A stretch of 64,000 nt of DNA. Source: Acidimicrobiia bacterium (lineage in GTDB: Bacteria; Actinomycetota; Acidimicrobiia; Acidimicrobiales; CAIXPF01). The notes below the pieces were generated by a model that worked only from the letters and a program-made list of their open reading frames with translations, ran no database searches and was not told where the DNA came from. Of the stretch, positions 16,868 to 59,922 are shown in pieces; the first letter of the stretch is position 1, and each line of letters begins with the position of its first letter. The DNA lies in assembly GCA_947476745.1 (NCBI GenBank), contig CANJRG010000019.1:1556-65555 (forward strand). Direction: 5' to 3'. The translations under genes and the position numbers were made by a program.

Positions 16868-19800
16868 ATGGCGACATTTGCGGCCAGACGGTCGGCGCTC
16901 GTGCGTCACCTGGGCATGGCGGGTCTGGTCCTCGCGGTGCTCAGCCTGTCGCTGATCACCGCAGCGGTGAAGAGCGAGCCGGCCGGTGCGGGCATCTTCT
17001 TCAACGATGTCGAGTACACCTACAAGGAGTACTGGGCCAGCCACGCCACCTTCACCGCCGGCTGCGGCGAACACGCGGTGTCCGGCAGCAGCTGGTACGT
17101 CGAGCCGCTGAACTGCGCCAAGTCGATCACCCTCAACATCCCCGACAACGTGCAGGGCGCCATCGCCGCGGTGCTCTACGTCGACCTGTGGCGTAACGGG
17201 ACCGCCCGCTCGGCCCGCCTCAACATCAACAACGGTCCGGAGATCCGCCCCGAGCGGGGCAGCCAGAACAGCCGTGACCCGTACACCACGCCGATCCCGT
17301 TGACGCAGCTCCGGCAGGGGACGAACACGATCAGCCTGCAGGAGACCACCGGCGCCTACCACCTTCACGACCTGATGGTCCGGGTGTACTACAGCCCCAC
17401 GCAGCCGCTCATCGCCGGGCCGGGCAGCGACGTCACCCCGCCGAGCGGTTCGCTCGATCTCATCAGCGCCGGCGGAACCAACCGCACCCCGGCGGAGGGC
17501 GGGACCCTCAACGTCGACAACAACCAGATCACGCTGTCCGCCGGCGCCAACGATGCCGCCTACGTCGAGTTCCACGGCTACTACGACGGCTTCGACGAGG
17601 ACAACGACGGCCAGACGCTCGACTGGCACAACTTCACCCGCAACAACTGGGGCCCGGGCGGAACGCTGGCCAAGGCGACCGGCGCCACCATCGGCCACAT
17701 CGGCACCGACAGCGTCGCCCCCTACCAGGTGACGTGGAACCTCCCCGAGGTCAAGAACCAGTCCGGGGTGAAGTTCAAGGTGCGCATCGTCGACAACGCC
17801 GGCAACGTGCGGGAGGCCCCGGGCGGTGTCTCGGCCCCGTTCACGCTCGCCAGATCCTACCTGGTGGAGAACTACACGATCCCGAACTTCGACGATGCCG
17901 GCATGTTCTTCAACGGCACGGCGCCGCAGCTCGCGACGCGATCCATCACGTTGCCGTCCGATCTCAGCAACGTCAGCCGGGCGTACCTCCTGGGCAACTT
18001 CTGGGAGAACCCGGGCATCTCGCTCAACGACAACACCTACTTCCGGGCCTTCACCAACGCCGAGGACACCTGGCAGACCTCGAAGCGCGAGCTCGCCGTC
18101 AACCAGTTGAAGCCCGGGGTCAACACCATCCGGTACAGCTTCGTGCCGCCGGGGTTCGGCCAGCTCATCGAGAAGCCCGGCCCGATGGTGGTCATCCACC
18201 GCACCGCGCCGGCCGGCTCGCCGGCCATCACCACCCAGCCGGTGGCGACGGTGGTCAGCCAGGGCCGTCAGGCGACCTTCACGGCCACTGCGTCGGGAGC
18301 GCCCGATCTTGCCTACCAGTGGCGCAAGAACGAGGTGGCGATCCCCGGGGCCACCGACCTCTCGTTCACGACCCCACCATTGCAGCCCGCCGACAGCGGC
18401 AGCGCCTACAGCGTGGTGGTGACCAACGGGCAGGGTTCGGCGACCAGCAGCTCGGCCAAGGCGACCGTGCTGCGGACCGGTGTGGCCACCGGAGCGTGGT
18501 GGAACGCCGGCTGGGATTTCCGGGTGCCGGTGACGGTCTCGCCCGGTGACACCGCCCGGACCAACAAGATGGTCGAGGTGCTGCTCAACTTCACCGAGTT
18601 GATGCGCACCGCCGGGAGCGGCGGGCCGAGCTTCGACCCCAACTCGGTGCGGGTGGTCGAGGTCGACGGGTCGGGCAACGTCATCGACGCCGGCGTGGCC
18701 CGCCAGGTCGATCCGGCCGAGGGCTACAACGCGGCGACCAACGCCAAGGCCAACGTCATCTTCCTGATGACCGGTACGACGAACCCCGAGACGTCGCGGA
18801 CCTACCACATCTACTTCGACAAGACGAGCAAGAACATCCCCGCCCCGACAGTGGCGCCGCTCGTCACGGTGACCGACAACGTGGTCGACCGGGGATTCCC
18901 GGCCTACCAGTTCAACGGCCAGGGATCGACCTGGGTCTACCACAAGGAGGGCGGCGGCTTCGCCAAGCTGCTCGACGCCCAGGGGATCGACTGGATCGAC
19001 TGGACGTCGGCGACCGGTGCCGCCGGTGACTACCGCGGGGTGCCCAATGCCGTCATGCCCGGCAACGGCGGGTTCTTCCACCCCGGGCGTGCCGGCGCCG
19101 GCACCTCGAAGATCGTGTCGAGCGGCCCGCTGAAGATCACCATCGAGACCGAGAGCTCCGACAAGCTCTGGGTCGCCCGCTGGGAGGTCTACCCGACCTA
19201 CGCCACCTTCAGCATGGTGCGGGCGGCCAAGCTCTTCTGGTTCCTCTACGAGGCCGTACCCGGCGGTACGTTGGACTTCAACGGCAACGACGTCGTGGTC
19301 CGTTCCGACGGCGTGTCGGTGAACATGGCCGGGAGCTGGCACACCGACCTCCCGGGCCAGGAGTGGGCCTACGTCGGCGACAAGGCCAAGGGCCGTTCCT
19401 TCTACGTGGCGCATCACCAGGACGAGGGCTCGGTCGAGTCGTACTGGCTGCTCCAGAACCAGATGCCGGTCCTCGGCTTCGGCCGCGGTGGCAACGCCCT
19501 GAACGAGTCCTTCCTCGATCCGACGGTCAATGGCCAGCCGCAGACCTTCACGGTGGGCCTGGTCGACTCGACCGACTTCTCGGTCGCCGGCAACGGCATC
19601 CGGGCGGCGTACCGGCCACTCGTGCTGCAGACCGGTGGCGCCGAGTTCAACGGGGTGTTCACCGGGCTGCGCAGTGACGACTTCTCCAGCGGCTCGCTGA
19701 ACCCGATGTGGACAATCTACGACCCCGTCGGTGACACCGCCGTCAGCACGACCGGCACCGACGTGCAGCTGGCCATTCCCGGCGTTGGTACCCACGATCT

Positions 19801-22800
19801 GTGGACCGGACGAAACAAGGCCCCGCGTCTGCTCCAGACCGTTTCGAACGGTGACGTCGGGATCGAGGCCAAGTTCAACTCGACGCCAACCCAGCGCTTC
19901 AGCGGCCATGGCCTGGTGTTCCAGGCCGACGCCAACAACCTGATCCGCTTCGGGGTCGAGAACACCGGCACGACGACGCGGGCGACGGCCACGGTCATGG
20001 TCAACGGCCAGGCGCAGATGCTGCAGGCCAAGTACCTCGAATCCGGTGTGCCGCAGTACCTGCGGGTGCTCCGTACCGGGAACTCGTGGGTGTTCGGTCG
20101 CTCCTTCGACGGCATCAACTGGATCAACCTGCCGCCGGTGACCTTCTCCCTGGTGGTAAGCGCGGCCGGGGTCTATGCGTTGTCCCACGGCACCCCCGGC
20201 CCGGCGTACACCGCATCGCTCGACTACATCGAGAACTACGCCCAGGCGCCCATCGTCGACGACGCGCCCAGGATGAGCAACGTCATCATCACGCCGAAGG
20301 CCCACCGGGCCGTGGTCTCGTGGACCACCAACGTGCCGGCCACGACCACGGTGCGGCACGGCTCGTCCGCCCTCGTCACGAACACCGTCGAGGACGCCAC
20401 GCTCACGACCAACCACCAGGCCACGGTGGACTTCCTGGCCTGCAACACGCCGTACTACCTGCAGCCGGTCACCGCCGCCGCCGACGGGGTGACGACGGAG
20501 GGCACGGTCACCCTGTTCTCCACCACGACCTGCACCGAGGCGTTCTCCGACGATTTCTCGGGACCGTTGGCCGATCCGCGGTGGATGAGCGCCGACCCGC
20601 TCGGCGACACCTTGACCACCCGAACGGGAACGAACGCGTTGTTCTCGATCCCCGCCGGGGTCGATCACAACCTCTACGCCGGCGCCAACCGGGCCCCGCG
20701 TCTGCGCCAGGACGGCCCCGAGGGGGACTTCTCCGTCGAGGCCAAGTTCGATTCGGTGCTCACCGCCGGCTACCAGATGCAGGGCATAGCCGTGGAACAG
20801 AACACCAACTCGTTCCTGCGGGTGGAGATCCACCATGACGGCACGGGTCCCAAGGCCTATGTCGTCGCGGTGATCGACGGGGTGGCCACCACACTGCTCA
20901 ACCCGGTGACGCTGCCGGCGAGCACGACGCACTATGTGCGCCTCGCCCGGGTCGGCAACGCCTGGACCGTGGGCCACTCGGTGAACGGCACCACGTGGAA
21001 CACCGTTGGCACCTTCAACCTGTCGTTGCGTTCGACCTACCTGTCCCCGTACATCGGCACGACGTCCACCGGTGGTGCGTCGACGCCGGCGTTCGTGGGG
21101 TCGATCGACTACTTCTTCAACACCGCAACCCCGATCGTGCCGGAGGACGGTGGTGCCGGTCCGGACACCACCCCGCCGGTCATGAGCAGCATCGTCGCCA
21201 CCACCAACCCGGCCAATGCGCAGGAGGCGACGGTCACCTGGACCTCGAACGAGCTCGCCTCGAGCCGGGTCGAGTGGGGTCTGACGACCGCTTACAGCCT
21301 GCCGGTGGTGACCGACAACACCGCGGTGCTCACCCACAGCGCCAAGCTCGCGCCCATCTCCTGCGGGAAGACCTACAACTTCCGGGTCGTCGGCAACGAC
21401 GCGGCAGCCAACACCGGTGCGAGCATCAACCAGACCTTTGTCGGTCCGGCATGTCCGGCCGGGCCCGTTTCCGACGACTTCAGCTCGGCGGCGCTCAACC
21501 AGCGCTGGCTGGTGGTGGACAAGGTCGGTGACGGCACGGTCACCCAGTCCGGTGGTCTGCTCAAGCTGAAGGTGCCGGCGGCGTCCCGCCACGATCTGGC
21601 CCCGACCAACAGCAAGGCCCTCCGGGTCCTCGAGGCGATCACCAACACCGATCTCGACGTCGAGGTGGGCTTCGAGTCGGTGGTCAACCTGCCGACCCAG
21701 ATCCAGGGTCTGGTCTTCGAGGCCGACAACGGGAACCTGGTCCGCTTCGACCTGTCCTCGACCGGGACCGAGACCAAGGCCTTTGTCGGCCGCCTGAACG
21801 GTACCGGCTTGGCGCAGCTCGCCTACGTGACGGTGCCGGGCTCGTCGGCGAGCCGGTTGCAAGTGTCCCGCGTCGGTTCGGTGTGGACGTTCGGGCACTC
21901 CTCCGACGGGACTACCTATACGACGATCTATAGCGGCGATCTGGGCACCTTCGCCCCCTCCCGGGTGGGTCCCTTCGCCGGCAACGCCAACGCCGTGCTG
22001 GGCTCGGTTCCGCCGCACACCGCGGTGGTGGACTACTTCTTCAACTCGGCGTCGCCCATTGTTCCCGAGGACGGAGGCTTCGTCGGCGCCCCCGAGTTCG
22101 AGCTGTACAGCGGCTCGTCGATGACGTTCGGCACGGTGGGTCTGACCCAGCCCGACATCAACATCCTCGGGCGGGTCATCGACCCCGACGGGGTGTCGTC
22201 GCTGACCTACAGCATCAACGGCGGTGCGCCGGTCGCCATGGGCGTCGGGCCGGACTCCCGGCGGCTGACCACGCCGGGCGAGTTCAACGCGGCCATCGTG
22301 GCGACCGACCTGCAGGCCGGGCTGAACACGGTGACCCTGCGGGCGGTGGACGCCTATTCGCACACGTCCTCGACGACCGTCGAGGTCACCTGGACGCCGG
22401 GTAACACCTGGCCGATGCCGTACAACGTCGACTGGTCCAACACCGCCAACCTGCTCGACGTCGTGCAGCCGATCGACGGCAAGTGGGCCATCGAGGGCGA
22501 CACGGTGCACAACACCGAGGTCGGCTACGACCGCATCCTCACCCTCGGCGACGACACCTGGAAGTCCTTTGAGGTCACCGTGCCGATCACGGTCAACTCG
22601 GTCGATCCGGCCGGCAACGCACCGCCCAACGGGGGACCGGCCATCGGCTTCATCCCCCACTGGAAGGGCCACATCGACGCCGAGTTCAGCCAGCCCCACT
22701 GGGGGTTCGCCGGCCAGCTCGGCGGCTGCGTGTGGTACCGCTACAAGGCCGACGGCATCAGCGAACGACTCGAGATCCGCGACTCCCAGGCGGTGCTGAC

Positions 22801-25177
22801 CGCGCAGGACCTCAGCGGCAAGACGCTGACGGCAGGGGTCACCTACCTGTTCAAGATGCGGGCCGAGTCCACGATCGGCAACGGGCCGCTCTACCAGCTC
22901 AAGGTGTGGCCGGCGAGCGATCCCGAGCCGACGCGTTGGGACGTGATCAGCCAGCTGCCGCCGGGTGGGCCCGATTCGGGTTCCCTGGTCCTGGTGGCGC
23001 ATTACGTCGACGCCAGCTTCGGTGACATCTCCGTGACCAAGCTGACCGCGGCCATGCCCACCATCAGCCCGGCCGGTGGCACCTTCGCCGGTCTGTCCAA
23101 GGTCACGCTGATCGCGGAGACGCCGGGTTCGGAGATCCGTTACACGCTCGATGGTTCCGCTCCCGGGCCGGATTCGACGCTGTACACCGAGCCGTTCTTC
23201 CTGTCGCAGTCTGCGGTGGTGCGGTCCAAGGCGTTCAAGGTCGGCAACGAGCCGAGCGCCGAGCGTCAGGCCACCTTCACCATCACCGCTGCACCGAACC
23301 GGGTGACGGACTCCCTGCGTGCCCTGTACCACTTCAACGAGGGCGCCGGGACGACGGCGTACGACGGCTCCGGGGTCAGCCCGGCGGCGAACCTGCGGAT
23401 CGAATCCGGCTCGGTGAGCTGGCTGCCGTCCGGTGCGCTGCGTCTGGACTCGGCGTCGGTGATCCGTACCGCCGGGGATGTCGGCAAGATCAGCTCGGCC
23501 GTGGCCGCCAGCGGGGCCTACAGCTTCGAGGCCTGGGTCGAACCGAAGGACCTCCTCCAGGGCCCGTCGGCACTGGTCGGCATCGGCCCGGTCTCCGGGA
23601 CCGAGCGCAATGCCTCGCTGGCCCAGAACGGCGTCGACTACCGCTCGGTGCTGCGGACCGGGACGACCGGACTCAGCGGCGCAGCGCAGAGCGCTCTGGC
23701 TGCGGCGCAGCAGTCGTTGCACCACGTCGTGTTCACCCGGGACTCTTCGGGCAACACCAAGATGTGGATCGACGGGGTGCAGGTCGCCGGCGGCACCCAA
23801 CGTGGGGTGCTGACCAACTGGAACACCGCGTTCCGGCTCGGGGTCGGCGGCATGCCGAACGGTACGGAGTCGTGGCTGGGTGATCTCTACCTCGTAGCGG
23901 TGTACAGCCGGCCGCTCACCCAGAACCAGGTGCTGCAGAACTTCCGGGCCGGCCCGTTCCCGCCGGTGCCCAACACCGCCCCGGTGGTGGCCGCCGGCCC
24001 GGCGGTGTCGATCCCGGTGGGCCAGAACGTCCTACTCGGCGGCACGGTGAGCGACGACGGCTTCCCCAAGCCGCCGAACGCCACCTCCGTCACCTGGTCG
24101 AAGGTGTCGGGTCCGGGCACGGTGACCTTCGCCTCGCCGAATGCCACGGACACACTGGCCTCCTTCTCGGCGGCCGGCTCCTACGTGCTGTGGCTCACCG
24201 CTTCGGACGGCGCACTGAGCAGTTCCGCCACCGTGGCGGTCACAGTCACCGCGGCCATCACCACGGTGCCGAACCCCGTCATCACGCCGGCTGCGGGTAC
24301 GTACTACGGCTCGGTCGCTGTGACGATCTCCAACAGCCTCAGCGGGGCGGAGATCCGCTACACGACCGACGGGTCGGCGGTGACCGGTACCTCGCCCCTC
24401 TACACGGCACCGGTCACCCTCACCTCCTCGGCGACGGTGCGGGCGAAGGCCTTCAAGAGCGGCCTCACCGAGTCGTCGCCGGTCAACGCGGCCTACACGA
24501 TCGCCGCAGTGCCACCCCGGGTGACTGCCGGTCTGGTGGCCTTCTACGACCTCGAAGAGGGCACGGGCGCCACCATCGGGGACACGTCTGGCGTGGGGAC
24601 GGCCGTCGACCTGACCGTGGCCGATCCCACCCGTACCTCCTGGGTCGCCGGAGGTCTGCGGTTCGACCAGGCCACCGTCGCACTGACCCCGGGGAGCGGG
24701 GCCAAGGTGACCGACGCGGTCAAGGCGTCGGGTGCGATGACCGTCGAGGCGTGGATCACCCCGGCGAACGTCACGCAGAGCGGGCCGGCGATGATCGTGA
24801 GCATGGCGGGCAGTTCGGCCAGGAACTGGGCATTGGGACAGACCGGCTCGAGTTACTCGACCAAGTTCCGCACCAGTACCACGACGGCGGACGGTGAGGT
24901 GGCCACCGCCACCCTCGGCGTCACGGCCGCCCGCCAGCACGTCGTCTACACCCGGGATGCGGCCGGTGCGGTCCGGGTCTACCTCAACGGTGCCCTGGTC
25001 ACCTCGCGGACCCTGACCGGCAACCTGTCCGGCTGGGTGTCGACGCAACGGCTCTCCTTCGGCGCCGATCGCGACGGGACCAAGCCGTGGCTGGGAACCA
25101 TCTACACGGTCGGTATCTACAGCCGTGCCCTTTCCGCAGTCGAAGTCAGTCAGAACTTCGCCGCTGGTGAGGCCTGA
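16868..25177 (+). CDS. Giant (2769 aa) secreted multidomain carbohydrate-binding protein
   Basis: It has an RBS and a signal peptide. Approximate domain positions:
- Ig I-set-like domain, about 18221-18470
- DUF2341-like start WWNAGWDFRVPVTV
- three paralogous ConA-like units beginning DDFS. and ending (L/I/V)DY(I/F)(E/F)N, at 19675-20243, 20549-21128 and 21470-22052, interleaved with FN3-like units
- two CHB_HEX_C-like plus LamG modules, at 23053-23960 and 24265-25174. Confidence 0.85.
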   Translation: MATFAARRSALVRHLGMAGLVLAVLSLSLITAAVKSEPAGAGIFFNDVEYTYKEYWASHATFTAGCGEHAVSGSSWYVEPLNCAKSITLNIPDNVQGAIAAVLYVDLWRNGTARSARLNINNGPEIRPERGSQNSRDPYTTPIPLTQLRQGTNTISLQETTGAYHLHDLMVRVYYSPTQPLIAGPGSDVTPPSGSLDLISAGGTNRTPAEGGTLNVDNNQITLSAGANDAAYVEFHGYYDGFDEDNDGQTLDWHNFTRNNWGPGGTLAKATGATIGHIGTDSVAPYQVTWNLPEVKNQSGVKFKVRIVDNAGNVREAPGGVSAPFTLARSYLVENYTIPNFDDAGMFFNGTAPQLATRSITLPSDLSNVSRAYLLGNFWENPGISLNDNTYFRAFTNAEDTWQTSKRELAVNQLKPGVNTIRYSFVPPGFGQLIEKPGPMVVIHRTAPAGSPAITTQPVATVVSQGRQATFTATASGAPDLAYQWRKNEVAIPGATDLSFTTPPLQPADSGSAYSVVVTNGQGSATSSSAKATVLRTGVATGAWWNAGWDFRVPVTVSPGDTARTNKMVEVLLNFTELMRTAGSGGPSFDPNSVRVVEVDGSGNVIDAGVARQVDPAEGYNAATNAKANVIFLMTGTTNPETSRTYHIYFDKTSKNIPAPTVAPLVTVTDNVVDRGFPAYQFNGQGSTWVYHKEGGGFAKLLDAQGIDWIDWTSATGAAGDYRGVPNAVMPGNGGFFHPGRAGAGTSKIVSSGPLKITIETESSDKLWVARWEVYPTYATFSMVRAAKLFWFLYEAVPGGTLDFNGNDVVVRSDGVSVNMAGSWHTDLPGQEWAYVGDKAKGRSFYVAHHQDEGSVESYWLLQNQMPVLGFGRGGNALNESFLDPTVNGQPQTFTVGLVDSTDFSVAGNGIRAAYRPLVLQTGGAEFNGVFTGLRSDDFSSGSLNPMWTIYDPVGDTAVSTTGTDVQLAIPGVGTHDLWTGRNKAPRLLQTVSNGDVGIEAKFNSTPTQRFSGHGLVFQADANNLIRFGVENTGTTTRATATVMVNGQAQMLQAKYLESGVPQYLRVLRTGNSWVFGRSFDGINWINLPPVTFSLVVSAAGVYALSHGTPGPAYTASLDYIENYAQAPIVDDAPRMSNVIITPKAHRAVVSWTTNVPATTTVRHGSSALVTNTVEDATLTTNHQATVDFLACNTPYYLQPVTAAADGVTTEGTVTLFSTTTCTEAFSDDFSGPLADPRWMSADPLGDTLTTRTGTNALFSIPAGVDHNLYAGANRAPRLRQDGPEGDFSVEAKFDSVLTAGYQMQGIAVEQNTNSFLRVEIHHDGTGPKAYVVAVIDGVATTLLNPVTLPASTTHYVRLARVGNAWTVGHSVNGTTWNTVGTFNLSLRSTYLSPYIGTTSTGGASTPAFVGSIDYFFNTATPIVPEDGGAGPDTTPPVMSSIVATTNPANAQEATVTWTSNELASSRVEWGLTTAYSLPVVTDNTAVLTHSAKLAPISCGKTYNFRVVGNDAAANTGASINQTFVGPACPAGPVSDDFSSAALNQRWLVVDKVGDGTVTQSGGLLKLKVPAASRHDLAPTNSKALRVLEAITNTDLDVEVGFESVVNLPTQIQGLVFEADNGNLVRFDLSSTGTETKAFVGRLNGTGLAQLAYVTVPGSSASRLQVSRVGSVWTFGHSSDGTTYTTIYSGDLGTFAPSRVGPFAGNANAVLGSVPPHTAVVDYFFNSASPIVPEDGGFVGAPEFELYSGSSMTFGTVGLTQPDINILGRVIDPDGVSSLTYSINGGAPVAMGVGPDSRRLTTPGEFNAAIVATDLQAGLNTVTLRAVDAYSHTSSTTVEVTWTPGNTWPMPYNVDWSNTANLLDVVQPIDGKWAIEGDTVHNTEVGYDRILTLGDDTWKSFEVTVPITVNSVDPAGNAPPNGGPAIGFIPHWKGHIDAEFSQPHWGFAGQLGGCVWYRYKADGISERLEIRDSQAVLTAQDLSGKTLTAGVTYLFKMRAESTIGNGPLYQLKVWPASDPEPTRWDVISQLPPGGPDSGSLVLVAHYVDASFGDISVTKLTAAMPTISPAGGTFAGLSKVTLIAETPGSEIRYTLDGSAPGPDSTLYTEPFFLSQSAVVRSKAFKVGNEPSAERQATFTITAAPNRVTDSLRALYHFNEGAGTTAYDGSGVSPAANLRIESGSVSWLPSGALRLDSASVIRTAGDVGKISSAVAASGAYSFEAWVEPKDLLQGPSALVGIGPVSGTERNASLAQNGVDYRSVLRTGTTGLSGAAQSALAAAQQSLHHVVFTRDSSGNTKMWIDGVQVAGGTQRGVLTNWNTAFRLGVGGMPNGTESWLGDLYLVAVYSRPLTQNQVLQNFRAGPFPPVPNTAPVVAAGPAVSIPVGQNVLLGGTVSDDGFPKPPNATSVTWSKVSGPGTVTFASPNATDTLASFSAAGSYVLWLTASDGALSSSATVAVTVTAAITTVPNPVITPAAGTYYGSVAVTISNSLSGAEIRYTTDGSAVTGTSPLYTAPVTLTSSATVRAKAFKSGLTESSPVNAAYTIAAVPPRVTAGLVAFYDLEEGTGATIGDTSGVGTAVDLTVADPTRTSWVAGGLRFDQATVALTPGSGAKVTDAVKASGAMTVEAWITPANVTQSGPAMIVSMAGSSARNWALGQTGSSYSTKFRTSTTTADGEVATATLGVTAARQHVVYTRDAAGAVRVYLNGALVTSRTLTGNLSGWVSTQRLSFGADRDGTKPWLGTIYTVGIYSRALSAVEVSQNFAAGEA

Positions 25178-51867: not shown

Positions 51868-53022
51868 TCAGGCCGCTGCGTCGGTCACTGCGGTGACGAA
51901 TCGGCGCGCTTCGTCGTCGAGCCGGTCGCCTGCGGCGAGCAGCGCCCCGCCGATGAGCAGCATGATGTCGTTGCCGTAGGCGGCGATCATATCGCCGGCC
52001 CGGTCGGGGGTCATGCCGCCGGCCGGCACCGGTAGGCAGGTCGCCAGATGGGCCCACGGCCGTCGGGCCCGTTCAGCGATGGCGTCACAGCGTTCGGCCG
52101 AGTACGAGAACCGTCCGCCGACGTTGGGGAAGATCGTGGCATCGGCGCCGAACAGGCGGAACAGTCCGCCGAGCAGCAGCGGCGGGTCGACGCGGGCGGC
52201 CCCGGCGTAGGCCGGGTGGGCGAGCACCGCCACACCGTCGAGGTCCTCGTCGACCAGCTCGCGGAAGGTGCCGAGGCCGATCAGGCTGGGCGCCACCAGC
52301 ACCGCCCGGACCCCGAGGTCGCGGGCCAACAGGGCCTGGCGGGCCAGGGTCCGCGGCGATCCGACCAGGCTGGGCACGTAGCGGGTGGACCCGCCGGTTC
52401 GCCGGTTGGCCCGTTCGACTGCGGCCTGGCAAGCCGCCACCCGCTCGGCGAAGGGAGCAGCGACCTGGTCGGCGAGGCCGTGGTCGTCCTTGACGAAGTC
52501 CAGGCCGGCGAGGGCGAATCGCTCGCACAGCGCCGCCAGCGCCGTTGCGTTCAGGCCCTGCGGCTTCAGCGCCGTGCAGGTGAGCGGCCGGCCGTCCGCC
52601 CCGCACAGTCTTCGCAGCCCGTCGATGCCGTGGCGTGGCCCGCGGAAGGACGCCAGCAGCGCCGGGGGTAGGTCGACCTCGACGAGGCGGACGGCGTCGT
52701 GCAGCGAGCAGTTGCCGAACAGCATGTTGAGCAGCTGGGCGGTCTCGGTGCCGACGGTCTCCGCGGCGAGGCCGAGGGTGACCGCGTAGCAGCCCGGCGA
52801 GTGTTCGGTGACGGCCTCGACGCGACCGGCCACCTCGGCGAGCACCCGCCGGTCGGTGATGGCGTCGAGGGGCATCTCGACGCTCTGCTCAGTGGCCAGG
52901 GCGCGTGCCACGGCGTCGATCTCGTCGGCCTCAGCGGACACCAGGTAGGTGGCCCGGATCCAGGCCGGCGCGTCGTGGTTCACCGGAGGTGCATCCTTCC
53001 ATCCGCCGCGGCGGGTCGCCAA
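51868..53022 (-). CDS. RuBisCO-like protein (form IV large-subunit homolog)
   Basis: LNMLFGN, TALKPQGL, LDFVKDDHGL and a C-terminal GG-containing region are collinear with the RuBisCO large-subunit active-site motifs. The start is the TTG at 53022 or the GTG at 52983. Confidence 0.75.
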   Translation of the reverse strand: MATRRGGWKDAPPVNHDAPAWIRATYLVSAEADEIDAVARALATEQSVEMPLDAITDRRVLAEVAGRVEAVTEHSPGCYAVTLGLAAETVGTETAQLLNMLFGNCSLHDAVRLVEVDLPPALLASFRGPRHGIDGLRRLCGADGRPLTCTALKPQGLNATALAALCERFALAGLDFVKDDHGLADQVAAPFAERVAACQAAVERANRRTGGSTRYVPSLVGSPRTLARQALLARDLGVRAVLVAPSLIGLGTFRELVDEDLDGVAVLAHPAYAGAARVDPPLLLGGLFRLFGADATIFPNVGGRFSYSAERCDAIAERARRPWAHLATCLPVPAGGMTPDRAGDMIAAYGNDIMLLIGGALLAAGDRLDDEARRFVTAVTDAAA

Positions 53023-53076
53023 CCCCCACCGGTTCAGGCGAGCAGGCCGGGCGCACCCACCAGCCCGAGGTCGGCC

Positions 53077-56752: not shown

Positions 56753-58177
56753 TCAGAGCGGGGTGTTGTCGTGGCGCCGGCCGACCAGGCGTTCCTGTTT
56801 GGTCTCGAGCGCCTCGATGGCGTGGCACAGTTCCCGGCGGGTGTCGGCTGGGTCGATGACCGCGTCGACCGTGCCGCGCCCGGCGGCTATGTAGGGGTTG
56901 AGCAGCCGGGACTCGTAGGAGGCCACGAACTCCTCGCGCTCCTCGGCGCTACCGCGCCGCATCAGGATCTCGGCGGCCTGGCGGGCGCCCATCACCGCGA
57001 TCTCGGCCGAGGGCCACGCCAGCATCAGGTCGTTGCCCATGAAGCGGGAGTCCATGACGATGTAGGCCCCGCCGTAGGACTTGCGCAGGGTGACACCGAT
57101 GCGTGGCACCGTGGCCCGGGCGTAGGCGAAGGCGAGCTGTGCCCCGTGGCGGATCATGCCGCGCCACTCGAGGTCTTTGCCGGGGTAGAAGCCGGGGGTG
57201 TCCACCAGGGTGATCAGTGGCAGGTTGAAGGCGTCGCAGAAGGCCACGAAGCGGGCCCCCTTCTGCGATGCCGGGATGTCGAGCGTGCCGGCGACGGACT
57301 GCGGCTGGTTGGCGATCAGTCCGACCGGGCGGCCCCCGAAGCTGGTCAGCGCGGTCACCAGGTTGGGCGCCCAGCCGGCTCGCAGCTCGAGCACCGCGGC
57401 GTCGTCGGCGAGGCAGGCGATGACCTTGCGGATGTCGTAGCTGCCGGTCGCGCCGACGGGGAGGAGGTCACCGGCCTCGGGGGTGGGACGGTCGATGGGA
57501 TCGTCGGTGGCCAGGCGGGCCGGTAGGTCGTCGCAATGGTCGGGCAGGTAGCCGAGCAGTTCGGTCAGCAGTGCGAGGGCGGCCTCGCGGTCGGGGACCA
57601 CGTCGATCGCCGTACCGGAGTCGCGGGCGTGGACCCAGGCACCACCGAGTTCGGCGGGGGAGACCTCCTCGCCGGTGAACGCCTTGACCATGTTCGGCCC
57701 GCTGACGTAGGCGTAGGCGGCGGCGGTCATCACCACCTGGTCGGCGAGGCCCAGCAGCAGGGCCGGGCCACTGATGGCCGGGCCGTCGACGGCCACGAGG
57801 ATCGGCACGATCCCCGAGCAGCGCACCACCGCCCGGGCCGCGGTACCCCAGCCGTGCAGGGCGGGAAGGCCTTCGCCGATGTCGGCCCCGGAGGAGGCCA
57901 GGATCAGCACCAGAGGCAGGCGCATGGTGCGGGCGGCATCGGCGGCAGCGGCGATCCGGACGCCGTCGGCGGCCTGCAGTGCCCCAAGGTGTGCCCCGAA
58001 ATGCGATTCGACGAGGACGACCTCACGGTCGCCGAGCCGGCGTACGTCGGCCCGGGTGGAACCGGCCATCCGCGAGCGGAACGACAACGCCGGAGGGGGG
58101 ACCACGTCGGTAACCGACCTGCCGGGATGCGGAACGGTTACGTCCGGGGGGTGATTTCCCACGAACGTGCCGTTCAC
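56753..58177 (-). CDS. Acyl-CoA carboxylase carboxyltransferase (beta) subunit
   Basis: The carboxyl_transferase two-domain pattern is present (PLVLILASSGADIGEG..., PLITLVDTPGFYPGKDLEWRGMIRHGA). The GTG start overlaps the LysR stop (GTGA). Confidence 0.85.
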   Translation of the reverse strand: MNGTFVGNHPPDVTVPHPGRSVTDVVPPPALSFRSRMAGSTRADVRRLGDREVVLVESHFGAHLGALQAADGVRIAAAADAARTMRLPLVLILASSGADIGEGLPALHGWGTAARAVVRCSGIVPILVAVDGPAISGPALLLGLADQVVMTAAAYAYVSGPNMVKAFTGEEVSPAELGGAWVHARDSGTAIDVVPDREAALALLTELLGYLPDHCDDLPARLATDDPIDRPTPEAGDLLPVGATGSYDIRKVIACLADDAAVLELRAGWAPNLVTALTSFGGRPVGLIANQPQSVAGTLDIPASQKGARFVAFCDAFNLPLITLVDTPGFYPGKDLEWRGMIRHGAQLAFAYARATVPRIGVTLRKSYGGAYIVMDSRFMGNDLMLAWPSAEIAVMGARQAAEILMRRGSAEEREEFVASYESRLLNPYIAAGRGTVDAVIDPADTRRELCHAIEALETKQERLVGRRHDNTPL

Positions 58178-59100
58178 AGCTCGCGCTGAGTCGGGTGGAT
58201 GCCGATCTGGCCGGCCGATTCGGCACGCACCGCGTCGTGGATGACCCGGTGTACCGCGCGGGCAGCAGCCGAGGGTAGGCCGCGTCGCCGCCGGACCAGG
58301 CCGACCGATCGTGGCGTCATGCCGGCAATGGGGATCCGCTTCCAGTGGCCCAGGCTGAGCAGCCAGTCGGGGGCGGCGCTGGCGGGGACGATGGCGGCCC
58401 CGAAGCCCTGGAAGGCGAGGGTGGCGACCAGGCGTAGGCCGTCGATCTCGGCTTTGGGTCGCAGCGTCACCCCGGCGGCCGCGGCGGCGGCGTCGAGCTC
58501 GGAGCGGAACACGGTGCCGACCGCCGCCAGCAGCAGCTCGTGGTCGGCCACGTCGGTGAGGGTGACCTGCTGGCGGTCGGCCAGGGGGTGGTCCCCGGGG
58601 GCGATCATGACCCGGTCCTCGTCGAAGAGCGGTTCCTCGAACACGTCGGGGTCGTCGGTGGGCAGGTTGACCACGGCGAGATCGATCTCGCCGCGGCCCA
58701 GCTGGGGGAGAAGCATCGAGGTGGTGGCGTCGACCACGACCAGGCGCACCTGGGGGTGTTCCCTCGACAGGCGGTCGAACACCAGGGGGACCAGCCAGCG
58801 GGCGGTGGTGCCGATCACCCCCACCCGGGCGGACCCGGAGATCTCGTCGTGCATCGATGCCACGTCGGAGGTGAGGGCCTCGAGCTCGCCGCGGATGCGC
58901 CGGGCCCGCTCCACCACCACCCGGCCTTCCTCGGTCACGGTGCTGTTGGCCCGGTCGACGAGCACCACCCCGAGCTCGCGCTCGAGGCGGGCCACGTGGG
59001 TGGACACATTCGATTGCACCGTGTGCAAGGCGCGGGCCGCCGCGGAGAACGTTCCATGGTCGGCCACGGCGAGCAGAGCGGAGAGCTGGCGGAGGTCCAT
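58174..59100 (-). CDS. LysR-family transcriptional regulator
   Basis: MDLRQLSALLAVADHGTFSAAARALHTVQSNVSTHVARLE is the LTTR HTH. The ATG is at 59100. Confidence 0.85.
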   Translation of the reverse strand: MDLRQLSALLAVADHGTFSAAARALHTVQSNVSTHVARLERELGVVLVDRANSTVTEEGRVVVERARRIRGELEALTSDVASMHDEISGSARVGVIGTTARWLVPLVFDRLSREHPQVRLVVVDATTSMLLPQLGRGEIDLAVVNLPTDDPDVFEEPLFDEDRVMIAPGDHPLADRQQVTLTDVADHELLLAAVGTVFRSELDAAAAAAGVTLRPKAEIDGLRLVATLAFQGFGAAIVPASAAPDWLLSLGHWKRIPIAGMTPRSVGLVRRRRGLPSAAARAVHRVIHDAVRAESAGQIGIHPTQREL

Positions 59101-59135
59101 CGCTTGCAATGATGGCACATATCGCCGACTACTGT

Positions 59136-59164
59136 TTGACAGATCTTGTGCGCTGGTGCACAAT
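59136..59164 (+). promoter_or_regulatory. Sigma-70-like promoter TTGACA-17 nt-CACAAT, overlapped by the LTTR-box-like palindrome TTGTGC-N6-GCACAA (59146-59163)
   Basis: A consensus -35 hexamer, unusual in this GC-rich DNA, with exact 17-nt spacing. The palindrome lies 46-63 nt upstream of the divergent LysR ATG. Confidence 0.4.
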
Positions 59165-59170
59165 GTCCCT

Positions 59171-59308
59171 ACACAAGTTGGACGCTTTGATCCGGAACCC
59201 CCACCGGAGGCGTACAGCAGGCGCAGCACCAGGTCCCCCCCGACGTGCTGACAGCCGAGAAGCGCCTGGTCCTCCTTCCCCCCTTGGACCAGGCGCTTCG
59301 TGTTTTCC
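59171..59308 (+). ncRNA. Candidate small RNA with three C-rich hairpin loops (6C-motif-like), ending in an intrinsic terminator
   Basis: Three hairpins are visible:
- 59191-59208, loop AACCCCCA
- 59224-59250, loop CCCCCC
- 59259-59299, a 14-bp perfect stem with loop UCCUUCCCCCCUU, followed by GUGUUUUCC
I found no convincing ORF or RBS. Confidence 0.5.
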
Positions 59309-59357: not shown

Positions 59358-59405
59358 GATTCAGTGGCGGTCGGATTCAGTGGCGGTCGGATTCAGTGGC
59401 GGTCG
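59358..59405. repeat. Three perfect tandem copies of the 16-mer GATTCAGTGGCGGTCG
   Basis: Read directly from the sequence. The repeat spans the stop codon of the MauE-like gene. Confidence 0.95.
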
Positions 59406-59922
59406 GGTTCGACCGGCGTGGTGAGATCGGACCGGCCCGTCCCCTGCGGCGCAGCGCCCGCGTCGACGTCACCGCGGTCAGGGCCACCACCACGGCCACC
59501 ACGACCGCGGCGGTGCTCGGCCATCGCGGCCAGTCACCGACGCACGCCACGGTTGCGGTGGCGATCAACCACACGTTGCGGACCACGTCGGCGACCGACA
59601 GCGGGTCGGTGCCCCGCCCGCCGAAGCAGTGGCAGGCCGCGCTGACCCCCGCCCTCAGCCGCAGGCTCAGGAAAACGGTGAAGGCCACCAGCAGGGCCGC
59701 GGCGAGCAGGGCCATACCGGCGGGGACGAGCAGCAGCCCCACGGCCAGGGCGGCCTCGACCGCGGGCACGGTTCGCGCCGCGGTCCAGGGGCGGGGCACG
59801 CCGAGCGCCCGGAACCCCCTGGCGGTGCCGGCTGGGTCGCGCCACTTGGCCGCGGCGGCCACCAGGAACACGCCCGCCAGCACGACGGCGGCGAGGTAGG
59901 GCAGGCCGCGCAGCGCGCTCAT
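59377..59922 (-). CDS. MauE/DoxX-family membrane protein
   Basis: A 4-TM protein with FLVAAAAKWRDP and a CHCFG motif. The ATG is at 59922. Confidence 0.6.
   Translation of the reverse strand: MSALRGLPYLAAVVLAGVFLVAAAAKWRDPAGTARGFRALGVPRPWTAARTVPAVEAALAVGLLLVPAGMALLAAALLVAFTVFLSLRLRAGVSAACHCFGGRGTDPLSVADVVRNVWLIATATVACVGDWPRWPSTAAVVVAVVVALTAVTSTRALRRRGRAGPISPRRSNPTATESDRH

Follow-up and report, generated by a model that had tools for sequence, protein, structure and literature searches.

In a 64,000-nucleotide stretch of DNA from an Acidimicrobiia bacterium (contig CANJRG010000019.1, positions 1,556 to 65,555; hereafter the window), a gene for a small RNA of about 135 nt lies back to back with the gene of a LysR-type regulator. 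Comparison across Acidimicrobiia shows the gene to be real and deeply conserved; it stands alone and specifies a structured, non-coding RNA. We read it, with a probability of roughly 0.7, as the Acidimicrobiia form of 6C (B11/scr3558), a trans-acting RNA that pairs with G-rich mRNA sites through its C-rich loops and is probably activated by the divergent LysR regulator. The RNA type is already well known, and the window RNA would best be placed in the 6C family as a member below the Rfam threshold, one with a third C-loop and a conserved LysR partner.

Judged by its sequence, the RNA promoter (Table 1) is of a strong housekeeping type. The original prediction had described a near-consensus promoter directed away from the LysR gene, and we find it as described: it is the only sigma-70-like site in the 6 kb between 56000 and 62000, where shuffled sequences yield 0.2, in a window with 70.6% guanine plus cytosine (GC). 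In 74 of 81 sequences a promoter could be placed at the corresponding position, with a −35 of TTGACA, TGGACA or TTGCCA followed by GAT, and a −10 of CACAAT, CATACT or TANNNT. Downstream of it, the plus strand from 59172 to 59308 folds into three GC-rich hairpins, each of which exposes a loop run of 5–7 cytosines, in keeping with the three C-loop hairpins originally proposed. The fold reaches −64.3 kcal/mol (z = −5.4), and 0 of 200 shuffles were as low; the opposite strand is unremarkable in the same test (z = −1.4). Hairpin 3 has a perfect 14-bp stem, in which GAAGCGCCTGGTCC (59259–59272) pairs with GGACCAGGCGCTTC (59286–59299) around the loop TCCTTCCCCCCTT, and the tail GTGTTTTCC follows at 59300–59308. 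The perfect stem and T tail of the terminator claimed at this site are therefore present, but a strict terminator scan did not call the hairpin despite its GC-rich stem and GTGTTTTCC, because the loop is 13 nt long and the tail holds only 4 T. Together, hairpin 3 and the T-run probably also end transcription. As had been claimed, there is no credible plus-strand open reading frame (ORF) over the RNA: the listed ORFs that overlap it extend into non-conserved flanks. A small-ORF reading was rejected, since no ORF is conserved among the relatives and the 1–2-nt indels and paired substitutions are unlike those of coding sequence. An R1 search (see below) found no second copy of the RNA in the window.

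The relatives come from 80 species-level genomes, whose loci we retrieved with the window LysR protein as anchor and in which LysR identity runs from 96% down to 50%. Their record titles name Acidimicrobiia, Acidimicrobiales, Ilumatobacter, Microthrix or Iamiaceae, which places the RNA in the Actinobacteria, as expected of 6C. Two metagenome-assembled genomes (MAGs), L002 and L034, are titled 'Ferrithrix thermotolerans DSM 19514' and 'Bifidobacterium breve'; their LysR-RNA loci look like those of other Acidimicrobiia, and they are probably mislabelled bins. Aligning 11 sequences with MAFFT and RNAalifold recovered the terminator helix alone because the upstream hairpins were misaligned, and we built as a replacement the structure-guided covariance model R1 from the window and five close relatives. 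R1 gives the window RNA 159.8 bits, unrelated matches at most 15 bits and antisense self-matches at most 22 bits. At the expected place it finds the RNA, with its promoter, divergent from the LysR ortholog in about 64 of the 80 loci, and the divergent arrangement as such is kept in essentially all of them. In almost every locus the module upstream of LysR, on the opposite strand, consists of a −35 with its GAT, a −10, two or three C-loop hairpins and a final long C-loop hairpin. Sequence identity over the RNA region is 71–92% in the nearest nine loci; in distant clades the stem sequences are entirely different, and the loops are still C-rich.

The stems covary throughout. Among the 43 best R1 matches, 93.6% of the cells are paired, compared with 35–50% when the partners are slid by 1–3 columns, and every one of the 38 modelled base pairs shows changes on both sides. 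The covariation score is 0.604 as against 0.05–0.09, and 0 of 500 shuffles attain 0.604. An alignment-free test points the same way: runs of at least 5 C occur at 16.7 per kb in the RNA zone and at 1.0 per kb elsewhere, and 78% of those in the zone are flanked by a stem of at least 5 bp, compared with 14% elsewhere (odds ratio 22, p ~3e-75). Helices 1 and 2, which form hairpin 1, are 88–96% paired with compensatory changes at every pair, and the inner stem is clade-specific (tccgg/ccgga, gcactcc/ggagtgc, gaaca/tgttc) around a constant C-run. In hairpin 2, helices 3 and 4 are 85–89% paired, again with compensatory changes in all pairs, and the helix of hairpin 3 is 99.1% paired with such changes at 14 of 14 pairs. 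The original prediction of a structured small RNA divergent from LysR is borne out by this conservation and covariation.

Loops and tails were counted in the 68 loci with a clear promoter and terminal hairpin. Three C-loop hairpins are present in 59 of them and two in 7. Two or more loops hold at least 6 C in 42 loci and one loop does in 24, the Ilumatobacter-like clade often having 5 C. A T-rich tail follows the terminal hairpin in 52 loci and is missing in the Microthrix-like clade. At L040, L041, L043, L045, L056, L061, L062 and L073 the RNA has two hairpins and looks like canonical 6C; two of them, L056 and L041, have the highest Rfam 6C scores of all, and these loci may represent the ancestral form of the RNA.

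The hairpin at 59259–59299 might instead do nothing but terminate a convergent minus-strand operon, the rest being chance, which is the scenario the original prediction had named as its own refutation. The window clade (L001–L010) has such an operon converging on the RNA from the other strand, with fatty-acyl reductase-HAD, LarA-like, acyltransferase and MauE-like genes. The last of these ends at 59377, 78 nt from hairpin 3, and the stem, being a perfect palindrome, forms on both strands. On the minus strand, however, the sequence 3′ of the stem reads TCGGCTGTC and has no T-run, and the fold is exceptional on the plus strand only. Moreover, the hairpins and promoter are kept in dozens of loci without a convergent MauE-like gene, a homolog of which is found in only 4 of 80. 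Because the RNA is conserved where MauE is lacking, the hairpin is not explicable as a MauE terminator, and we give this scenario a probability close to nil. The 3′ end and stop codon of the MauE-like gene overlap a 16-nt tandem repeat, GATTCAGTGGCGGTCG, at 59358–59410 (3.3 copies, 97% matches). Repeats also lie downstream of the RNA in some relatives, as short tandem repeats (GGTCAGCGGTG...) in L052 and L055 and as a long direct repeat in L011.

Table 1. Coordinates of the predicted small RNA, its promoter and hairpins, and the divergent LysR-type gene with its candidate control sites in the window.
Feature	Position	Strand	Details
LysR-type regulator gene, 308 aa, without cysteine	58174–59100	−	ATG at 59100; HTH_1 and LysR_substrate domains
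Candidate LysR operator, ATC-N9-GAT-N7-ATC	59099–59123		Half-sites at 59099–59101, 59111–59113 and 59121–59123
Possible −10 (CATCAT) of a LysR mRNA with little or no leader	59109–59114	−	Proposed from sequence; overlaps the GAT half-site
RNA promoter	59136–59164	+	−35 TTGACA 59136–59141; 17-nt spacer; −10 CACAAT 59159–59164
Palindrome TTGTGC-N6-GCACAA	59146–59163		TTGTGC 59146–59151, GCACAA 59158–59163; spans the spacer and −10
Predicted small RNA, ~135 nt	59171–59306	+	5′ end placed from the −10, 3′ end from the T-run
Hairpin 1	59177–59218	+	Loop AACCCCCA at 59196–59203; minimum-energy fold
Hairpin 2	59220–59256	+	Loop CAGGUCCCCCCCGAC at 59230–59244, 7 C; matches hairpin 1 of Rfam 6C
Hairpin 3, terminator-like	59259–59308	+	Loop UCCUUCCCCCCUU at 59273–59285, 6 C; matches hairpin 2 of Rfam 6C

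The RNA family that this element resembles, 6C (RF01066), belongs to the same phylum, Actinomycetota, and is known as B11 or ncRv13660c in Mycobacterium tuberculosis, scr3558 in Streptomyces coelicolor and cgb_03605 in Corynebacterium glutamicum. It is defined by two hairpins with covarying stems and a loop run of at least 6 C each, and is widespread in Actinobacteria, as a rule 200–300 nt from chromosome-partitioning or pilus-assembly (ssd/tad) genes (PMC1950547). In M. tuberculosis, 6C is about 95 nt long, responds to peroxide by induction and lies between Rv3660c and Rv3661 (PMC3384566). Two of its loops, L2 and L3, are rich in C and pair with G-rich sites in mRNAs; the 5′ loop L1 is not conserved (PMC6486639). 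The window RNA has two consecutive hairpins of this kind, hairpins 2 and 3, and its stems covary at all modelled pairs.

At the gathering threshold, no Rfam family matches the window or 20 related loci (L001–L020). A permissive search with the Rfam 6C model gives a full-length alignment at 59217–59302, over hairpins 2 and 3, with 31.1 bits (E = 0.033 in 601 nt). Matches of 34.1 bits in L056 and 32.1 bits in L041 fall on the same site, and the 66 kb searched hold no 6C match elsewhere. The 6C gathering score, 47 bits, is a cut-off set for practical use and describes nothing biological. Matches to Scr3202, Scr3920, CcsR1, ar7, Pxr and miRNA families were dismissed, being far under their own thresholds. 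On the likeness to 6C, the original prediction is supported by matches both ways, sub-threshold with Rfam and reciprocal with R1 as described next.

For the reverse comparison, we reached a canonical 6C by tblastn of the Acidimicrobiia HAD-IB domain against plasmid records, which worked because some of these records are mislabelled chromosomes: L085 (NZ_LN868939.1) is Nocardia farcinica 'plasmid 2' at 2.66 Mb, and L086 (NZ_LT559118.1) is Nonomuraea gerenzanensis 'plasmid I' at 11.85 Mb. The query matched an N. farcinica gene at 33% identity (E = 5e-22). Adjoining this HAD-IB gene and diverging from it is a canonical 6C (74.2 bits with Rfam), and a TadA-like ATPase gene comes next. An unfiltered R1 search of 34.5 kb of actinomycete DNA put the N. 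farcinica 6C first at 27.6 bits (E = 6e-6), ahead of a runner-up at 12.4 bits; this reciprocal test used one canonical 6C sequence. The alignment maps hairpins 2 and 3 one-to-one onto the two N. farcinica 6C hairpins, and at the place of hairpin 1 the N. farcinica RNA has a 5′ hairpin without a C-run. Two BLAST queries of the plasmid records, one with the Rfam 6C consensus and one with the window RNA, gave chance matches only. A search for homologs of the HAD domain returned only close Acidimicrobiia relatives and did not reach proteins of the Rv3661 type.

The genomic context adds to the likeness. HAD-IB genes of the Rv3661/SCO3558/MSMEG_6173 type are known to adjoin the 6C/Ms1 locus throughout Actinobacteria (PMC9130861, PMC3384566). 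Where the upstream sequence of a relative reaches far enough, the RNA is mostly followed on the same strand by a gene fusing HAD-IB (TIGR01490) to a 1-acylglycerol-3-phosphate acyltransferase, which begins 170–430 nt from the LysR start. Given the matches in both directions, and the HAD-IB gene that most such relatives have beside the RNA, we assign the window RNA to the 6C family as a divergent member. The two RNAs have in common two GC-rich hairpins with loops of at least 6 C, the second of which ends the 6C transcript and probably that of the window RNA, and an extra 5′ hairpin (PMC1950547, PMC6486639), as well as a strong housekeeping-type promoter and a reciprocal covariance-model match; a HAD-IB neighbour is known for 6C (PMC9130861) and is seen beside the RNA in relatives of the window. 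They differ in that the window RNA is about 135 nt long rather than about 95 nt and has a C-run in its 5′ hairpin too, with three C-loops in 59 of 68 relatives. Unlike 6C, it lacks an ssd/tad neighbour, and in the relatives it points toward the HAD-IB gene whereas 6C points away from it. Its partner is a LysR-type gene; for the 6C promoter of C. glutamicum, by contrast, LexA, GlxR and RamA are the reported factors (PMC5014011). The canonical ssd/tad arrangement can be seen in Nocardia and Tsukamurella. Tsukamurella tyrosinosolvens (L087, 3811–3949) has the canonical order TadA-Ssd, HAD-IB and oxidoreductase; its Ssd/HAD-IB spacer holds neither a 6C at the Rfam gathering score nor C-loop hairpins. 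Ms1 RNA, which lies beside 6C and HAD-IB in actinomycetes, was not found at the gathering threshold in the scanned loci.

C-loops also occur in small RNAs well outside this phylum. RsaE/RoxS of Firmicutes and CcsR1 of Rhodobacter are small RNAs whose C-rich loops target G-rich ribosome-binding sites. They share with the window RNA the use of C-runs in hairpin loops as seeds, but differ from it in phylum, architecture and context, and the CcsR1 model gives the window RNA 14 bits at a gathering score of 65, a result that offers no sign of homology.

Given its place 5′ of the HAD-IB/acyltransferase gene, the RNA could also be a cis-acting leader or attenuator of that gene, with LysR acting through the leader; Rfam lists 6C as 'Cis-reg', and the gene follows on the same strand in most loci that extend far enough. 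However, in almost every locus that allowed its start to be located, the HAD-IB/acyltransferase gene has a TANNNT hexamer of its own 6–7 nt ahead of the start codon (TAGGCT, TACGGT, TAGCGT and so on, as in L012, L013, L036, L059 and about 28 other loci), so that its mRNA would be leaderless, with its own promoter and separate from the RNA. The RNA itself ends in a long GC hairpin and, in most loci counted, a T-rich tail. In the window clade, moreover, the HAD-IB gene is not downstream and no same-strand gene follows at all, yet the RNA and its promoter are intact. A leader function is therefore very improbable. The HAD-IB domain of the window itself lies 3–5 kb from the RNA on the other strand; by sequence similarity, the HAD gene of the relatives and that of Nocardia are candidate orthologs.

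The product of the divergent LysR gene carries an N-terminal HTH_1 domain (PF00126, 1.6e-17) and a LysR substrate-binding domain (PF03466, 2e-42), no specific NCBIfam equivalog scores above cut-off, and the nearest solved structures are OxyR proteins. An OxyR identity was rejected, because the redox cysteines equivalent to Cys199 and Cys208 are absent; the sensing position, GHC in C. glutamicum OxyR, reads GTV in the window protein. Of 81 orthologs, 49 have no cysteine at all, and there is no conserved cysteine column. With no cysteine in the protein and none conserved in orthologs, this LysR is not an OxyR-type peroxide sensor.

The class-wide candidate operator is not the one first proposed. 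The original prediction had placed a LysR site at the palindrome TTGTGC-N6-GCACAA, which is present, perfect or near-perfect, throughout the window clade. As a LysR site, though, it is clade-restricted: a perfect 6+6 dyad is found in 21 of 74 loci, the Ilumatobacter-like clade has another dyad at its place (ATGCAC-N8-GTGCAT) and the Microthrix-like clade has none. The palindrome over the −10 may be a second, lineage-specific operator rather than the conserved LysR box. What is kept across the class is the site further upstream, ATC-N9-GAT-N7-ATC. When 72 distinct loci are aligned on the −35, its half-sites are conserved in 72 (ATC), 71 (GAT) and 69 (ATC) of them, with all three in register in 68. 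Its first dyad forms a T-N11-A box (T59100, A59112) centred at about −66 from the predicted start near 59171. LysR-type activators usually have their recognition site at about −66/−65. In the window the first ATC overlaps the LysR start codon; it is equally kept in clades whose LysR start lies 13–60 nt further upstream, and therefore reflects a DNA signal, not a coding constraint. The LysR mRNA seems to be leaderless too, judging from TANNNT hexamers 6–8 nt before the LysR start codon in relatives (e.g., TAGGCT in L070). A candidate operator that sits over the likely LysR −10 would fit autoregulation, and from this arrangement LysR control of the RNA is plausible as well.

There are precedents for such a layout. 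In E. coli, OxyR-oxyS and GcvA-gcvB each pair a LysR-type regulator with a divergently transcribed small RNA. Similar to these systems, the window LysR gene and RNA stand back to back with dyad sites in a short shared control region, an arrangement in which the regulator could both activate the RNA and control itself. The likeness is one of layout: the window RNA is unrelated to OxyS or GcvB and, unlike OxyR, the cysteine-free LysR does not lend itself to OxyR-like peroxide sensing.

From the conserved arrangement, LysR would bind the predicted site at 59099–59123, centred at about −66 and about −55 from the RNA start. If OxyR-oxyS and GcvA-gcvB are a guide, a small-molecule signal would lead the bound protein to activate the RNA promoter; the protein would also repress the leaderless promoter of its own gene, with which the site overlaps. 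With its C-rich loops as seeds, the RNA would then pair with several mRNAs at G-rich stretches within or close to their ribosome-binding regions, and pairing would change the translation or stability of these targets without Hfq, as in the Mycobacterium 6C (PMC6486639). On the minus strand at 53021–53032, CCGGTGGGGGTT is a perfect 12-nt complement of the hairpin 1 loop and 3′ arm, about 21 nt upstream of the Shine-Dalgarno sequence of a RuBisCO-like gene (GTG 52983). It is the only such site in the window beyond the RNA's own antisense strand and is a target lead only, at chance level (0.9 expected at no more than 1 mismatch).

Instead of pairing with mRNAs, the C-loops could serve as sites for a protein, for example a poly(C)-binding factor, a ribosomal protein or RNA polymerase. 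The structure of 6C had earlier prompted a structural or protein-binding suggestion (PMC3384566), and an RNA whose loops are extremely conserved while its stems are free to vary, with no convincing target in the window, would suit such a role. For M. tuberculosis 6C, however, pairing between C-rich loops and G-rich mRNA sites has been shown for 15 targets with reporter fusions and loop mutants (PMC6486639), and nothing in our analysis indicates a protein partner. We consider this explanation decidedly improbable.

Several observations weigh against the window RNA being a LysR-activated 6C. The start, end and expression of the RNA are predictions. The Rfam 6C matches fall 13–16 bits under the gathering score, and most of the ten relatives searched permissively have no reported 6C match. 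The annotated neighbours, traced over 36 kb upstream and 12 kb downstream, include no ssd/tad gene, and the RNA has the opposite orientation to HAD-IB from that in Nocardia and the canonical locus. In a target scan within the window, duplex energies did not rise above background. Since the covariation alignment had been fitted to R1, we added the alignment-free test. Because the loci were gathered via LysR, the choice of sample accounts for part of the LysR-RNA linkage. The operator, which overlaps the LysR promoter and start, could serve autoregulation only. There is also some probability that a canonical 6C lies elsewhere in the same genomes, which would make the window RNA a paralog or analog; our survey covered the LysR loci.

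Both cross-family matches, finally, come largely from the same simple features, GC-rich stems and loops with C-runs, and could reflect convergence. The RNA would then be a conserved Acidimicrobiia C-loop small RNA that is not a 6C homolog, its simple features being easy to evolve in GC-rich genomes. The low Rfam scores, the missing matches in relatives and the unlike gene context all fit this possibility, as do weak matches to the unrelated C-loop families Scr3202 and CcsR1. On the other side, the top matches are reciprocal, Rfam 6C leading to this site and R1 to the 74-bit 6C well above the next match, hairpins 2 and 3 correspond one-to-one to the 6C hairpins, and both RNAs have a 5′ hairpin (PMC6486639). 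They also come from one phylum, and a HAD-IB gene adjoins 6C as well as the RNA in relatives of the window. While convergence could account for the look of the loops, we think it rather improbable, and keep to the reading of the window RNA as a divergent 6C.

The genes around the locus point, weakly, to metabolism. In the window, the minus-strand segment 55250–59100 holds LysR, then an acyl-CoA carboxyltransferase gene, whose start shares 4 nt with the LysR stop (58174–58177), and then citrate synthase. Of the 80 loci, 56 have a carboxyltransferase gene near LysR, which in all but three of them comes directly after it on the same strand; 48 have citrate synthase nearby, and the order is mostly LysR, carboxyltransferase, citrate synthase. 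This suggests that LysR heads a central-carbon operon. The conserved row of HAD-IB/acyltransferase, RNA, LysR, carboxyltransferase and citrate synthase is a hint, though a weak one, that the locus is tied to acetyl-CoA and lipid metabolism. Elsewhere in the window, at 16868–25177 on the plus strand, there is a very long ORF of 2769 aa with coding-like GC content at third codon positions.

One could go further and propose, as a speculation that we regard as on balance unlikely, that LysR, the three-loop RNA, the HAD-IB/acyltransferase, the carboxyltransferase and citrate synthase form one ancient unit, in which the cysteine-free, OxyR-like LysR senses a central-carbon or lipid intermediate and switches on the RNA. 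If this were so, the RNA would retune the translation of many mRNAs with G-rich leaders, and acetyl-CoA partitioning and phospholipid synthesis would thereby be tied to growth state. The link between 6C and HAD-IB, seen in Acidimicrobiia and Nocardia and reported in other actinomycetes, would then reflect an ancestral function of 6C, and Acidimicrobiia would preserve a dedicated transcription factor that model actinomycetes appear to lack.

6C is one of few small RNAs conserved across Actinobacteria and has been reported to be essential or growth-limiting in mycobacteria, while its physiological role and upstream signal are still unclear. Our reading would extend the family to Acidimicrobiia, a class abundant in lakes, oceans and activated sludge, with an RNA that has three C-rich seed loops, not two. 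Because the Rfam model misses it, the RNA would go unannotated in these genomes; this exposes a gap in the model, and R1 and its alignment could widen the Rfam 6C seed. Fixed as it is beside a LysR gene with a strictly conserved candidate operator, the RNA offers a testable lead to the transcription factor and the signal behind a 6C-type RNA.

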